This document shows, piece by piece, positions 13,980-15,703 of a DNA stretch of 51,794 nt (its first letter is position 1; every line of letters starts with the position of its first letter). The translations under genes were made by a program, and so were the position numbers. The stretch lies in the NCBI GenBank assembly GCA_050693695.1, contig JBOGWM010000282.1:1-51794 (forward strand), written 5' to 3'. Source of the stretch: Actinomycetota bacterium (GTDB lineage: Bacteria > Actinomycetota > CADDZG01 > JAHWKV01 > JAOPZY01). A model generated the notes under the pieces. That model worked only from the letters and a program-made list of their open reading frames with translations. It made no database searches and was not told where the DNA came from.

Positions 13980-14861
13980 ATGGCCGTCAGAGCGGATACG
14001 GAGTGGGAGTGGGAGCTGGAAGAGGAGCTGGAAGGTGAGATGGAAGGCGAGGAGTTCCTTGGCACGATCGCCCGAGGGGCGGGGAGCCTCCTCGGAGGAC
14101 TGGGTGAGGGCGAGTTCGAAGAGGAGCTCGAGGGCGAATGGGAGGGGGAGCTGGAAGGCGAGCTCGAGGGCGAGGAGTTCTTCAGACGTATCGCCCGCGG
14201 GATCAGAGGTTTCGTCCGCCGAGCAGCCCCGGTCCTCCGTCGAGTCGCCCGGGTCGCCGCTCCGATCGTGGGGACGGCGGTGGGAGGTCCCCTGGGAGGC
14301 ATGATCGGGCGAGCCGCCGCCTCCGCCCTCGGCGAGGCCGAGCTTGAATACGAGTACGAAGGGGAGCTGGAAGGGGAGCTGGAAGGAGAAGAGGAGTTCG
14401 AGGAGGAGGCTGCGGCTCCTGTCACCTACCAGCAGGCGCAGGCGGAGCTCATGGCGGCGGTGGCTTCCCGGGCCCAGACCGAGGCCGAGGCCGAGGCTAT
14501 GGCGGGAGCGGCCGCGGTGGCTTCGATCTCTCCGGCGGACCGCGCGGCGCTTCGCGACGTCCTCCCGCACCTGGTTCGCGGCACCGCCGTCCTGACCCGG
14601 ATCCTCCGGAGCCGGCCGGCCACCCGCCCCGCGGTGCGGACCGTTCCCAGCATCGTCGCCAGCACCGCCCGCACCCTCACCCGCCGAGCCGCAACCGGCC
14701 AACCCGTCACCCGGCAGGCCGCGGGGAGGGTCATGGCCGCCCAGACCCGGCGGGTGCTCGGGCGTCCGCATGCATGCGCCCGAGCCCTTCAGCGCAACGT
14801 CCGGGCCACCCGGGCTGCGGCCTCCACAGGCCGGCCCCGCGCCGTGCGGCCCCGGCCTTGA
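13980..14861 (+). CDS. Orphan modular protein A (293 aa): three anionic E-x repeat blocks, a cationic amphipathic/glycine-zipper segment and a basic Arg/Thr/Pro-rich tail
   Basis: ATG with an AAGGAGG SD. Anionic blocks: TEWEWELEEELEGEMEGEEF, GEFEEELEGEWEGELEGELEGEEFF and ELEYEYEGELEGELEGEEEFEEE. Cationic segment: RRIARGIRGFVRRAAPVLRRVARVAAPIVGTAVGGPLGGMIG. The tail ...RPATRPAVRTVPSIVASTARTLTRRAATGQPVTRQAAGRVMAAQTRRVLG is paralogous to that of the next gene. Confidence 0.8.
   Translation: MAVRADTEWEWELEEELEGEMEGEEFLGTIARGAGSLLGGLGEGEFEEELEGEWEGELEGELEGEEFFRRIARGIRGFVRRAAPVLRRVARVAAPIVGTAVGGPLGGMIGRAAASALGEAELEYEYEGELEGELEGEEEFEEEAAAPVTYQQAQAELMAAVASRAQTEAEAEAMAGAAAVASISPADRAALRDVLPHLVRGTAVLTRILRSRPATRPAVRTVPSIVASTARTLTRRAATGQPVTRQAAGRVMAAQTRRVLGRPHACARALQRNVRATRAAASTGRPRAVRPRP
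14361..14384 (+). repeat. Perfect 12-nt tandem duplication (ggggagctggaa x2) inside the third acidic block
   Basis: Read directly from the sequence. It encodes GELEGELE. Similar imperfect GAG/CTG/GAA units occur at 14000-14060 and 14110-14185. Confidence 0.9.
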
Positions 14862-14923
14862 TGAGGCCATCCGGGCGAGGCGGCGGCCAGGCAGCGAGTG
14901 AGCTCTGAAAGGAAGGGACGACC

Positions 14924-15703
14924 ATGGGTATGTCCGCATACGAGCTTGAGGCCCTGCCCGAGCTCGAGGAGGAATACGAGCGGGAGGAAGAGCTGGAAGG
15001 CGAGTGGGAGAGCGAGGAGTTCTTCCGAGCCCTCGCGGGAGTGGCCCGCCGCGCAGCCCCCGCCTTGAGGGGAGTCGGACTGCGCGCGGCCAGGAGCGCT
15101 CTGGGTGGGCTCGGCGGCGTCGGCGGAGCGATCGGAGGGTACTTCGGGCCGAGCGGCGCCGCCCTGGGACGTGACCTGGGACAGACGCTCGGCCGTCATG
15201 CTCGGGGCTGGCTTCCGCAATCCGAGATCGAGGGCGAGTGGGAATGGGAGCTGGAGGCGGAGGTGAACCCCCTGCGGCAGGTCTACCCGGATGCGCTGAT
15301 GGAGCATCTGGGGCATGCCGCAGCCCAGACGGAGAGCGAAGAGGAGGCCGAGGCCTTTCTCGGAGCGCTGGTCCCCCTGGCGGCCCGGCTCATCCCACGG
15401 GTAGCGCCGGCCATCATGAGAGCCGCTCCGGGCCTGATCCGGGGCGTGGCGGGAGTGGCTCGCACCCTGAGAGCAAACCCGACGACCCGGCCCCTCGTCA
15501 GGACGCTCCCCACCATCGTTCACCGGACCGCCGGTTCGATCGCCCGCCAGGCCGCCGCCGGCCGGCCGGTCACCCCGCAGGGAGCGGTTCGGACCCTGGC
15601 CAGGCAGACCGCGGGTGTCCTGGGCAGTCCTCAGCGGTGCGTTCAGGCCTACCGGCGCTCCCGCGCCCTGGACCGGCGGTTCCATCACACCGCCTCCCAA
15701 TGA
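14924..15703 (+). CDS. Orphan modular protein B (259 aa), paralogue of protein A
   Basis: SD GAAAGGAAGGG. Anionic blocks YELEALPELEEEYEREEELEGEWESEEFF and EIEGEWEWELEAE flank RALAGVARRAAPALRGVGLRAARSALGGLGGVGGAIGGYFG. The tail ...NPTTRPLVRTLPTIVHRTAGSIARQAAAGRPVTPQGAVRTLARQTAGVLGSP aligns by eye with protein A. Confidence 0.8.
   Translation: MGMSAYELEALPELEEEYEREEELEGEWESEEFFRALAGVARRAAPALRGVGLRAARSALGGLGGVGGAIGGYFGPSGAALGRDLGQTLGRHARGWLPQSEIEGEWEWELEAEVNPLRQVYPDALMEHLGHAAAQTESEEEAEAFLGALVPLAARLIPRVAPAIMRAAPGLIRGVAGVARTLRANPTTRPLVRTLPTIVHRTAGSIARQAAAGRPVTPQGAVRTLARQTAGVLGSPQRCVQAYRRSRALDRRFHHTASQ

Follow-up and report, generated by a model that had tools for sequence, protein, structure and literature searches.

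Two adjacent plus-strand genes on a contig of 51,794 nucleotides (nt) from an Actinomycetota bacterium (JBOGWM010000282.1, analyzed over its whole length and referred to here as the window) raise the question of what a bacterium does with proteins in which acidic repeats of the form (E-x)n alternate with cationic and Gly-rich segments. Their products, A (13980-14861, 293 amino acids, aa) and B (14924-15703, 259 aa), had been described in an original prediction as pro-peptide-like precursors, in which acidic blocks neutralize cationic, membrane-active peptides and a metallopeptidase encoded nearby releases them. Our analysis shows that A and B each consist of disordered (E-x)n runs, short Gly-rich amphipathic segments and one folded, cationic, all-helical domain. 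It also shows that the (E-x)n run is a tag used across a larger system: it is present in A and B, at the C-termini of many F proteins and at the N-termini of wall enzymes encoded further downstream. As a pair, A and B are the signature of a previously undescribed module that spreads horizontally and is made up of a LuxR-type regulator and the proteins A, B, C, D, E and F. Full-text searching of the literature found no paper on the A/B family or the operon. Both appear to be new, and the system appears to be of a new kind.

Sequence architecture and predicted fold of A and B

Shine-Dalgarno-like sites lie 6-9 nt 5' of both genes (AGGAGG in the case of A), and the plus-strand frame is confirmed by more than 1,000 homologues with 55-78% amino-acid identity. 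BLASTP aligned residues 67-273 of A with residues 33-246 of B at 38% identity (E = 6e-31), and the two proteins are therefore paralogues. A has a net charge of -10. Together A and B contain 67 Arg, and neither contains any Lys. Homologues from cyanobacteria and from other hosts of lower GC content use Lys freely, which suggests that the Arg bias tracks genome composition and that the requirement is for positive charge rather than for arginine.

Three acidic runs divide protein A. Run 1 (residues 8-25; 14001-14054) ends in EMEGEE directly before a Phe, and its DNA is an imperfect 12-nt tandem repeat. It is followed immediately by a Gly-rich amphipathic module, FLGTIARGAGSLLGGLG (residues 26-42; 14055-14105), for which AlphaFold predicts a helix with low confidence. 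Run 2 (residues 43-66; 14106-14177) ends in ELEGEE before two Phe residues, and E59, E61, E63, E65 and F67 were invariant in an alignment of 16 diverse homologues. FFRRIARGIRGFVRRAAPVLRRVARVAAPIVGTAVGGPLGGMIG comes directly after run 2, in a segment (residues 67-118; 14178-14333) that hydrophobic moment, AlphaFold and covariation mark as a cationic amphipathic helix leading into a helical hairpin at GGPLGG. Arg occupies positions 69, 70, 73, 76, 80, 81, 87, 88 and 91 of this segment and Gly positions 98, 102, 106 and 110. Run 3 (residues 119-144; 14334-14411) ends in GEEEFEEEA, and the remainder of the protein (residues 145-293; 14412-14858) is an Arg-rich, all-helical C-terminal domain of seven predicted helices, common to A and B. 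Summed from a per-residue charge table, residues 67-118 and 145-293 carry a net charge of about +29, and 36 of the 37 Arg of A are located there. Protein B reads EGEWESEEFF followed by RALAGVARRAAP...GGLGGVGGAIGGYFG...EIEGEWEWELEAE; its acidic runs (14939-15019 and 15224-15265) flank a cationic and Gly-rich part (15020-15223), and its C-terminal helical domain is encoded at 15266-15700. The acidic blocks, the junctions and the Arg and Gly positions of A were all where the original prediction had placed them, and the sequence and the BLASTP match confirm its view that B repeats the logic of A (acidic run, EEFF, cationic part).

We compared Glu spacing in A and B with composition-preserving shuffles. 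Pairs of Glu at a spacing of 2 numbered 33 in A, about 12 standard deviations above the 6.3 ± 2.2 obtained in shuffles, and 19 in B, where shuffles gave 3.0 ± 1.5. A similar excess was seen at spacings of 4, 6 and 8 and none at odd spacings. The runs have a hydrophobic moment at 170 degrees and none at 100 degrees. Their DNA consists of imperfect 12- and 24-nt tandem repeats, which fits the variable run length among relatives. The helical hydrophobic moment of residues 67-96 of A was 0.76-0.87 (Eisenberg scale, 18-residue windows), so that this cationic segment is amphipathic, as predicted.

We modelled A with AlphaFold2 from the 16-sequence alignment (predicted template modelling score 0.66). 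The acidic runs and the first module (residues 1-62 and 119-144, thus including runs 1 and 3) had a predicted local distance difference test score (pLDDT) below 50; the score was 85-93 for residues ~70-105 and above 90 for residues 150-285, as it was for the seven helices of the C-terminal domain. The confident part of the model is all-helical, with a helix at 61-102, a break at G103-P104-L105, a helix at 106-119 and then the seven helices. Covariation, as independent evidence, was assessed by mean-field direct-coupling analysis of 401 A/B homologues (effective number of sequences 256) against the maximum of three column-shuffled nulls. Sixteen pairs exceeded this maximum, including 101-201, 105-161, 75-270 and 91-246; pair 79-274, in i+4 register with 75-270, fell just below it. 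An antiparallel hairpin is suggested by pair 91-118, which was above the null maximum, and by pairs 99-108 and 98-106, which were both below. Because the shuffled null takes no account of phylogeny or of the division into A and B, we treat the covariation as supporting evidence and not as proof.

Modelling and covariation together show that the long helix and the GGPLGG hairpin, previously taken for a cationic peptide and a glycine zipper, belong to one predicted, folded and strongly cationic helical domain, and that the acidic runs of A and B are flexible appendages predicted to be disordered. The conserved fold makes up about two thirds of A. A free-standing peptide or zipper is contradicted by the pLDDT of 85-93 within a helical fold and by the four covarying pairs named above. 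The four Gly residues of the zipper (G98, G102, G106 and G110) are present in the A protein of the window, but their register is only partly conserved: in the 16-member alignment G103 and G106 were invariant and G107 nearly so, while G98, G102 and G110 were not. A membrane-spanning zipper helix also fits the model poorly, since GGPLGG is modelled as a turn between two helices. The original prediction had named a single compact fold, with acidic and basic parts packed together, as an outcome that would count against it; the cationic parts do lie in one helical domain, but the acidic runs are predicted to be disordered and outside it. Its further suggestion that the acidic segments are helical DNA mimics is disfavored: compared with mimics of the Ocr/ArdA type, the runs are predicted to be disordered and gave no sequence or fold match. 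A search of the A model with Foldseek against the PDB and BFVD (predicted viral structures) returned a best E of 0.49 and no relevant match.

The A/B family is large. A word-indexed search with A found more than 1,173 relatives with 55-78% identity, all labelled 'hypothetical' and essentially without Pfam domains, from Chloroflexota, Actinomycetes (including Streptomyces), Solirubrobacterales and Acidobacteriota. An exhaustive profile search for A/B yielded 1,311 clusters at 50% identity with E <= 1e-3, 278 of them with E <= 1e-30. The family spans at least eight phyla. Throughout the 16-member alignment the same order is kept: (E-x)n, EEFLGTIARGxGGLLG, (E-x)n, EEFFRRIxRG..RRAAPxLRRVARVAAPIVGTAVGGPLGG, (E-x)n and a basic domain of ~150 aa. 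Among 120 homologues, the EEF(F/L)-R/G-x-I junction, RRAAP and GG(P/F)(L/F)GG were each found in 90 and EEFLG in 70. The acidic/cationic alternation is thus retained in homologues from many phyla. Within this conserved architecture, the unit formed by an acidic run and an 'E-E-F-L-G-x-I-x-x-G-x-G-G-L-L-G' module occurs in 0 to 5 copies per protein; such variation in repeat number had been expected by analogy with multi-copy precursors. The x positions of the runs are occupied by G (31%), F (18%), L (15%) and Y (11%), with V, I and T each near 1%. In 125 full-length members, acidic residues numbered 50.9 ± 9.0 and basic residues 40.6 ± 4.9, for a net charge of -10.3 ± 7.2, and the two counts were correlated (r = 0.59). 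The cationic segment, with its Arg helix, ranks among the most conserved parts of the protein in the 16-member alignment, and in this it is unlike typical fast-evolving antimicrobial peptides.

Some family members depart from this plan. There were no fused known domains among the longest, one of which (P0366) looks like a frameshift artefact joining A, B and C. P0356 and P0327 are natural tandem A-B fusions in Lys-rich proteins, P0270 has five Gly-rich modules, P0315 a long GKLG-repeat expansion and P0252 a C-terminal extension ending in NRRVVICV that is possibly OmpA-like. Very long (E-G/E-F)n expansions occur at L021:5930-6400 (L numbers denote related loci), and Microseira has a third B-like paralogue with an extra C-terminal domain (L067:13770-14918). 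In cyanobacterial B homologues an RRRRQR site separates a module from the acidic run that follows it. In B of Acidobacteriaceae a Gly-rich module, WLGTLGNIAGSLLG, replaces the Arg-rich helix. Many B homologues (for example L056:7946-8905, L019:7981-8910, L030:7914-8900 and L061:7855-8784) carry an extra Gly/Arg/His-rich extension with a Cys-rich end, such as ...CPSCGCCQCCGR, ...CRCCGQVIR or ...CPGCGR. This tail, which B of the window does not have, could be a metal-binding or lipidation motif.

The gene cluster and its acidic tag

The gene order regulator (minus strand), A, B, C, D, E, F is kept in Streptomyces, Pyrinomonadaceae, Caldilineaceae and a Paraburkholderia megaplasmid. We examined 85 related loci by tblastn, many of which end early at contig ends. 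C was present in all 85, A and B in 82 each, D in 78, E in 74, F in 71 and the regulator, at the same divergent position, in 63. The number of A/B paralogues ahead of C is exactly two in 75 of the 85. A scan of one genome per species found a relative of C in 272 species, with 60-76% identity. The majority are Acidobacteriota; the others belong to Chloroflexota, Actinomycetota, Cyanobacteria, Alpha-, Beta- and Gammaproteobacteria, Planctomycetota, Deinococcales, Binatia and Victivallales. Most of the hosts come from soil or crust.

We scanned all six frames of the 85 loci for at least five ([E/D]-x) repeats with x small or hydrophobic. The A/B region contained 238 such runs in 0.21 Mb, and a further 27 were found on the same strand within 6 kb downstream of F (0.31 Mb scanned). 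There were none inside C-F (0.41 Mb), four elsewhere on the plus strand (0.38 Mb), two of these in an A protein reaching further upstream, and none on the minus strand (1.31 Mb). The distribution indicates that the tag is specific to the A/B system.

The runs downstream of F belong to proteins that begin with a period-2 acidic run, for example MRDADFELEAELEEL..., MVRDLEYELEGELEQ... and ...ELETESESEFESEFEWES. Pfam assigned to them GH25 with PG_binding_1, Peptidase_M23, SLT with PG_binding_1, Trypsin with OmpA, and PG_binding_1 alone; NCBIfam confirmed OmpA/Pal-type peptidoglycan-binding ends, and other tagged proteins are small and contain HExxH motifs. These domain types are those of phage endolysins. 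None of the tagged downstream proteins examined had a signal peptide. Tagged enzymes were located at L003:18365-20943, L006:11388-12077, L016:14822-16300, L056:14551-17462, L075:15127-17258, L058:9810-13030 and L052:10160-11092, and often stand in arrays of two or three. In about half of the F homologues a basic linker leads to an (E-aromatic)n tail at the C-terminus, for instance REFEFEV, EHEYEMEYEV or EYEFEYELEV (examples are L003:17103-18287, L009:12840-14003, L031:11108-12316 and L075:13733-14905); F of the window has no such tail. The tags therefore occur at either end of proteins that have no cationic peptide to neutralize, and they must be recognized by something. This argues for a general recognition or assembly tag and against the earlier idea that the runs are charge-neutralizing pro-regions only.

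The remaining core proteins gave few clues from known families. Each of the five plus-strand genes from C to G has a ribosome-binding site. D (17111-17656, plus strand) is a helical protein of 181 aa with a net charge of -10. Its GTG start lies 4 nt past the stop of C (17107-17111), a spacing that suggests translational coupling and a C-D complex. We considered D as a PMEI-like (four-helix) inhibitor and rejected this, as only 1 of 15 members gave a match and that match was weak. E (17671-19488, plus strand; 605 aa from an ATG with a ribosome-binding site; net charge -43) has a conserved N-terminal part of ~450 aa and variable C-terminal Ig-like domains, seen in the window as TIG and CoaZ repeat matches, and its homologues range from 392 to 1,049 aa. 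F (19585-20712, plus strand; 375 aa) is a highly conserved core protein with 54-76% identity across phyla. There was no family match for D, F or the N-terminal 450 aa of E, and Pfam, NCBIfam, PADLOC and PHROGs were all negative for A, B, C, D and F. PADLOC, with its models of anti-phage defence systems, gave 0 matches for all seven cluster proteins, and searches of the PDB by sequence, single and profile, returned nothing below E = 0.01 for A/B, C, D, E or F. No ATPase, transporter, signal peptide or transmembrane segment was found among the cluster proteins.

Upstream of A, and divergent from the operon, lies the gene of a small LuxR/GerE-type regulator (13048-13500, minus strand; Pfam GerE E = 4e-17). 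The intergenic spacer (13501-13979, ~480 base pairs), the presumed promoter and operator, has a GC content of 0.48-0.56 compared with 0.67 for the window. It contains a 13-nt inverted repeat (13727-13739 / 13769-13781). No Rfam family matched the spacer at threshold; a sub-threshold Guanidine-II-like match on the minus strand (E = 0.15) is probably due to chance. Downstream of F, protein G (20775-22244, plus strand; 489 aa) is a variable accessory with two PG_binding_1-like repeats (Pfam E = 1.4e-8), PHROG matches of endolysin type, no signal peptide and a weakly acidic N-terminus (MTDADASLEEFIEWMDE). It was rejected as a core gene because none of the 85 loci has an orthologue. An untagged Amidohydrolase_2 protein (22355-23107, plus strand; Pfam E = 2.5e-21) is a recurrent last gene, present in 28 of the 50 loci with enough downstream sequence, and the copy in the window shares 67% identity with its positional counterpart in Paraburkholderia.

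Unrelated housekeeping genes flank the cluster, which is thus island-like. The upstream flank includes, on the minus strand at 8227-10735, an ordinary and unrelated set comprising a copper-type P-type ATPase with an HMA domain and a separate HMA metallochaperone, then a DUF1232 protein and a ROK-family kinase. A phage or prophage origin was considered and set aside, as GenBank phage records yielded no relative of A and IMG/VR contigs none of C. A plasmid search gave only one match, on a 2.4-Mb replicon. We also rejected a contractile injection system or a type VI/VII secretion effector, because neither the cluster in the window nor the conserved synteny contains sheath, tube or baseplate genes or any gene for a secretion ATPase. 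One phage-sheath (contractile injection system) gene does start ~2.4 kb beyond F in Streptomyces sp. CA-249302 (L001:20666-20954); as this adjacency was seen only at that locus and not in the window or the other loci examined, it is probably coincidental.

Proposed mechanism and alternative explanations

The gene always found beside A and B encodes protein C (15764-17107, plus strand; 447 aa, net charge +18), which has the HExxH motif HEVSH at residues 227-231 (16442-16456). Its relatives number more than 3,100, with 60-78% identity across phyla, and H227, E228, H231, E270 and D274 are invariant. In an all-helical AlphaFold model whose mean pLDDT is only 67, E270 and D274 sit on the next confident helix after HExxH, so that C has a conserved downstream candidate for the third ligand of zincins. 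In addition, an untagged M20 peptidase, scoring above the NCBIfam 'dipeptidase' cut-off, is encoded near the end of the cluster in 39 of the 50 loci with enough downstream sequence; its recurrence fits the clearing of runs made from dipeptide units. Genes of this recurrent end of the cluster lie, for example, at L005:16797-19037; the window has the amidohydrolase and no M20 gene. The invariant HExxH protein and the dipeptidase point to proteolysis.

The reading that we favor, although we would put it somewhat short of an even chance, is that the cluster is a latent envelope-lytic module switched on by proteolysis. In the cytoplasm of the producer the acidic runs would hold both the lytic enzymes and the A and B domains, which are polycationic and potentially membrane-active, in a soluble, masked or tethered state, and would mark A/B and the enzymes alike as clients of C. 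On induction of the operon by its dedicated regulator, C would trim the runs before the hydrophobic residue that follows EE in EEF(F/L), and the M20 dipeptidase would clear the E-x products. Cleavage before a hydrophobic residue at this junction would suit a gluzincin-type enzyme. The freed cationic helical domain might then breach the cytoplasmic membrane and so give enzymes without signal peptides access to the peptidoglycan. Either the producer would lyse or, after release, neighboring cells would come under attack. The variable Ig-like domains of E are a candidate targeting part, perhaps for other cells.

Several observations are consistent with this proposal. Phage endolysins reach the wall only through a membrane lesion, and by analogy with endolysin-holin biology, peptidoglycan enzymes that carry no signal for export depend on such a lesion or on a carrier. 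The cluster encodes no ATPase, transporter, signal peptide or transmembrane segment; membrane-active character is confined to two segments of A and B, the Arg-rich amphipathic helix and the Ala/Gly/Val hairpin. A function that is expressed conditionally and is possibly dangerous would agree with the dedicated regulator and with the island-like distribution by horizontal spread.

On the other hand, a number of results weigh against a proteolytic, membrane-breaching module. Neither A nor B has a true hydrophobic transmembrane segment (best 19-residue Kyte-Doolittle mean 1.39 for A and 1.44 for B). Foldseek searches of the PDB and BFVD showed no similarity of the A/B fold to colicins, holins or other pore formers. 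The EEFF sequence, where cleavage would occur, is the start of a helix in the A model and not an exposed loop. C matches no peptidase family or fold in Pfam, NCBIfam, a PDB profile search or a Foldseek search of the PDB (none with E < 1), so that the neighboring metallopeptidase of the original prediction stands as regards its invariant HExxH residues and its constant position and falls short as regards any resemblance to known peptidases. No small immunity-like genes were seen between the tagged enzymes. Clearly tagged wall enzymes were seen in about one in three of the loci whose downstream sequence is long enough; the enzymes must therefore be accessory, and the core must work without them. 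Finally, at the C-terminus of F a docking peptide makes better sense of the tag than a pro-piece does.

This last point leads to the main rival, which we consider possible but rather doubtful: the runs are docking or assembly tags and no proteolysis is involved. As 'acid zipper' strands they would bind the Arg-rich domains of A/B, another core protein, or each other through divalent cations. A/B scaffolds, whether polymerized head to tail or gathered in a condensate or particle, would recruit F and the tagged enzymes, with E on the outside, and C would perhaps not be their protease. The signal-less enzymes, the membrane-active segments, the recognition of the tag and the possibly dangerous function can be claimed equally by docking and by proteolytic activation. 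Docking accounts well for the presence of the same tag at N-terminal, internal and C-terminal positions in different proteins, for run lengths that are free to vary while composition is kept, and for the co-variation of acidic and basic counts noted above (r = 0.59). Charges are complementary (about +29 for the ordered parts of A, +18 for C, -43 for E and -10 for D), and the whole core is strongly conserved, as for a multi-subunit assembly. However, docking leaves the invariant HExxH protein and the recurrent dipeptidase unexplained. Furthermore, no shell-, tube- or capsid-like protein was recognized, folds having been modelled for A and C only, and the x positions favor Gly and seldom hold the beta-branched V, I or T, an unusual composition for a stable beta-zipper. 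We can also imagine, with little confidence, an ATPase-free delivery or release system in which the (E-x)n 'acid zipper' tag pairs with the Arg-rich A/B helices in charge-zipper pores, or in a polycation-polyanion particle, and signal-less, folded enzymes are carried through the membrane or out of it. Such a self-contained system would have a targeting code of its own, the HExxH protein as its trigger and the Ig-like domains of E as its targeting part. It would represent a new type of bacterial secretion system or bacteriocin machine, common to soil bacteria from many phyla.

The strict precursor model, in which excision after EEF(F/L) frees the Gly-rich modules and the Arg-rich helix as antimicrobial peptides, is now improbable. 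In its favor are the FLGxIxxGxGGLLG modules of 14-17 residues, which occur in variable number between acidic spacers, the high hydrophobic moment of A 67-96, the RRRRQR site of cyanobacterial B homologues, the HExxH protein and dipeptidase nearby, and the precedent of promelittin, whose pro-part is also acidic with a period of two. Nevertheless, the Arg-rich helix and the Gly hairpin lie inside a conserved fold and the cationic segment is not free-standing; it is also highly conserved, the opposite of the diversification typical of antimicrobial peptides. The N-termini of A and B are acidic, no hydrophobic segment, signal peptide or exporter was found, and the model leaves unexplained the basic domain of ~150 aa and the tags on the enzymes and F. 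The pro-peptide idea of the original prediction thus retains its alternation, its variable modules and its candidate processing enzymes, is weakened by fold and conservation, and survives, at long odds, for the short Gly-rich modules. Another possibility is that A and B bind polyanions (nucleic acid, polyphosphate or wall polyanions) and are gated by Glu runs acting as intramolecular mimics, with a logic like that of HMGB1. The strongly positive ordered part of A, with nearly all of its Arg and no Lys, the disordered acidic runs and the consistent excess of acidic over basic charge among the 125 homologues would suit such a role. This is very unlikely, though: family, PDB and fold searches recognized no DNA- or RNA-binding domain in A/B, the associated enzymes act on the cell wall and not on nucleic acids, and the tagged wall enzymes have no basic domain to gate. 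We give the least credence to stress-protection proteins (hydrophilin- or LEA-like) or binders of Ca2+ or other metals whose neighbors are unrelated to their role. The soil and crust habitats of most hosts and the long, disordered Glu-rich stretches agree with it, and period-2 Glu faces could chelate cations. However, the six genes keep a fixed order, have a regulator of their own and are accompanied by tagged lytic enzymes, all of which argues for one machine, and about two thirds of the protein is a conserved fold.

Relation to known systems

Anionic pro-pieces are known from eukaryotic antimicrobial precursors of the multi-copy apidaecin, frog dermaseptin/temporin and plant Ib-AMP types. 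As in these and in venom precursors, acidic stretches of A/B alternate with cationic or Gly-rich amphipathic segments, module copy number varies, and genes for a candidate processing enzyme and a dipeptidase are nearby. An acidic pro-region adjoining a cationic amphipathic segment, and kept in relatives, is a feature of A/B as it is of precursors. Promelittin, described in PMC11420870 as an inactive, non-haemolytic precursor for which stepwise removal of the pro-part by a dipeptidyl peptidase is cited, shares with the A/B runs a period of two residues. In contrast to the eukaryotic precursors, A and B are bacterial and cytoplasmic, lack a signal peptide and have the main cationic segment within a conserved fold that is two thirds of the protein. 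Those precursors are hypervariable, whereas A/B are strongly conserved and their runs also occur on enzymes and on F.

Holin-endolysin cassettes, or type 10 secretion, resemble the cluster in having signal-less hydrolases (GH25, SLT, M23, PG_binding_1) beside potentially membrane-active helices and no ATPase or transporter, and the dedicated regulator of the cluster suggests a similarly tight control of expression. However, holins have a transmembrane helix and fewer than about 150 aa, whereas A/B have no transmembrane domain and 260-400 aa (293 and 259 in the window). The cluster also has four further conserved core genes, and its acidic tags have no counterpart in the cassettes. The peptidoglycan enzymes lacking signal peptides are found downstream in some loci, and the searches of GenBank phage records (with A) and IMG/VR (with C) were negative. 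Bacterial gasdermin-protease pairs likewise place a putative protease gene beside a putative membrane-active protein with an inhibitory extension, and they share the patchy, horizontal spread. They have no sequence or fold similarity to A/B: gasdermin is beta-rich and A/B all-helical, and a single C-terminal inhibitory peptide contrasts with several internal runs.

The cargo-targeting peptides of encapsulins, microcompartments and contractile-injection payloads are, like the tag, short, disordered, recognizable by sequence and attached to diverse enzymes beside a conserved core. The (E-x)n chemistry differs, the tag is repeated inside core proteins, and homologues of shell, sheath, tube or baseplate proteins are absent from the cluster. 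For the charge-zipper helices of TatA and for designed alternating polar/non-polar peptides the likeness is conceptual only. TatA also has complementary acidic and basic stretches beside an amphipathic helix, without homology and with a transmembrane anchor that A/B lack; the designed self-assembling peptides share the period-2 pattern and one all-Glu face, again without homology. For each of the first four analogues (eukaryotic precursors, holin-endolysin cassettes, protease-activated pore formers and cargo-targeting peptides) at least one of the defining features tested is absent, be it the signal peptide, the transmembrane helix, similarity in fold or sequence, or the shell or sheath genes. 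We therefore file the system under no known family; it may share logic with them.

The six-gene core and its own regulator, previously undescribed, are conserved at 55-78% amino-acid identity over at least eight phyla, and searches for protein families, solved structures, defence models and phage families were negative for the six core proteins, the C-terminal Ig-like domains of E excepted. Even if the mechanism is wrong, they constitute a well-defined family for structural and genetic work, for which culturable hosts exist (Streptomyces, Paraburkholderia sp. PGU19 and Nostocales). The (E-x)n tag joins two polyampholyte proteins to a changing set of wall-degrading enzymes and is possibly a targeting or activation code. 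If the module lyses cells or kills neighbors, it would represent a new mechanism of bacterial antagonism or programmed death in soil communities, would provide a portable tag for the control of lytic enzymes and would explain how signal-less peptidoglycan hydrolases can act outside phage.

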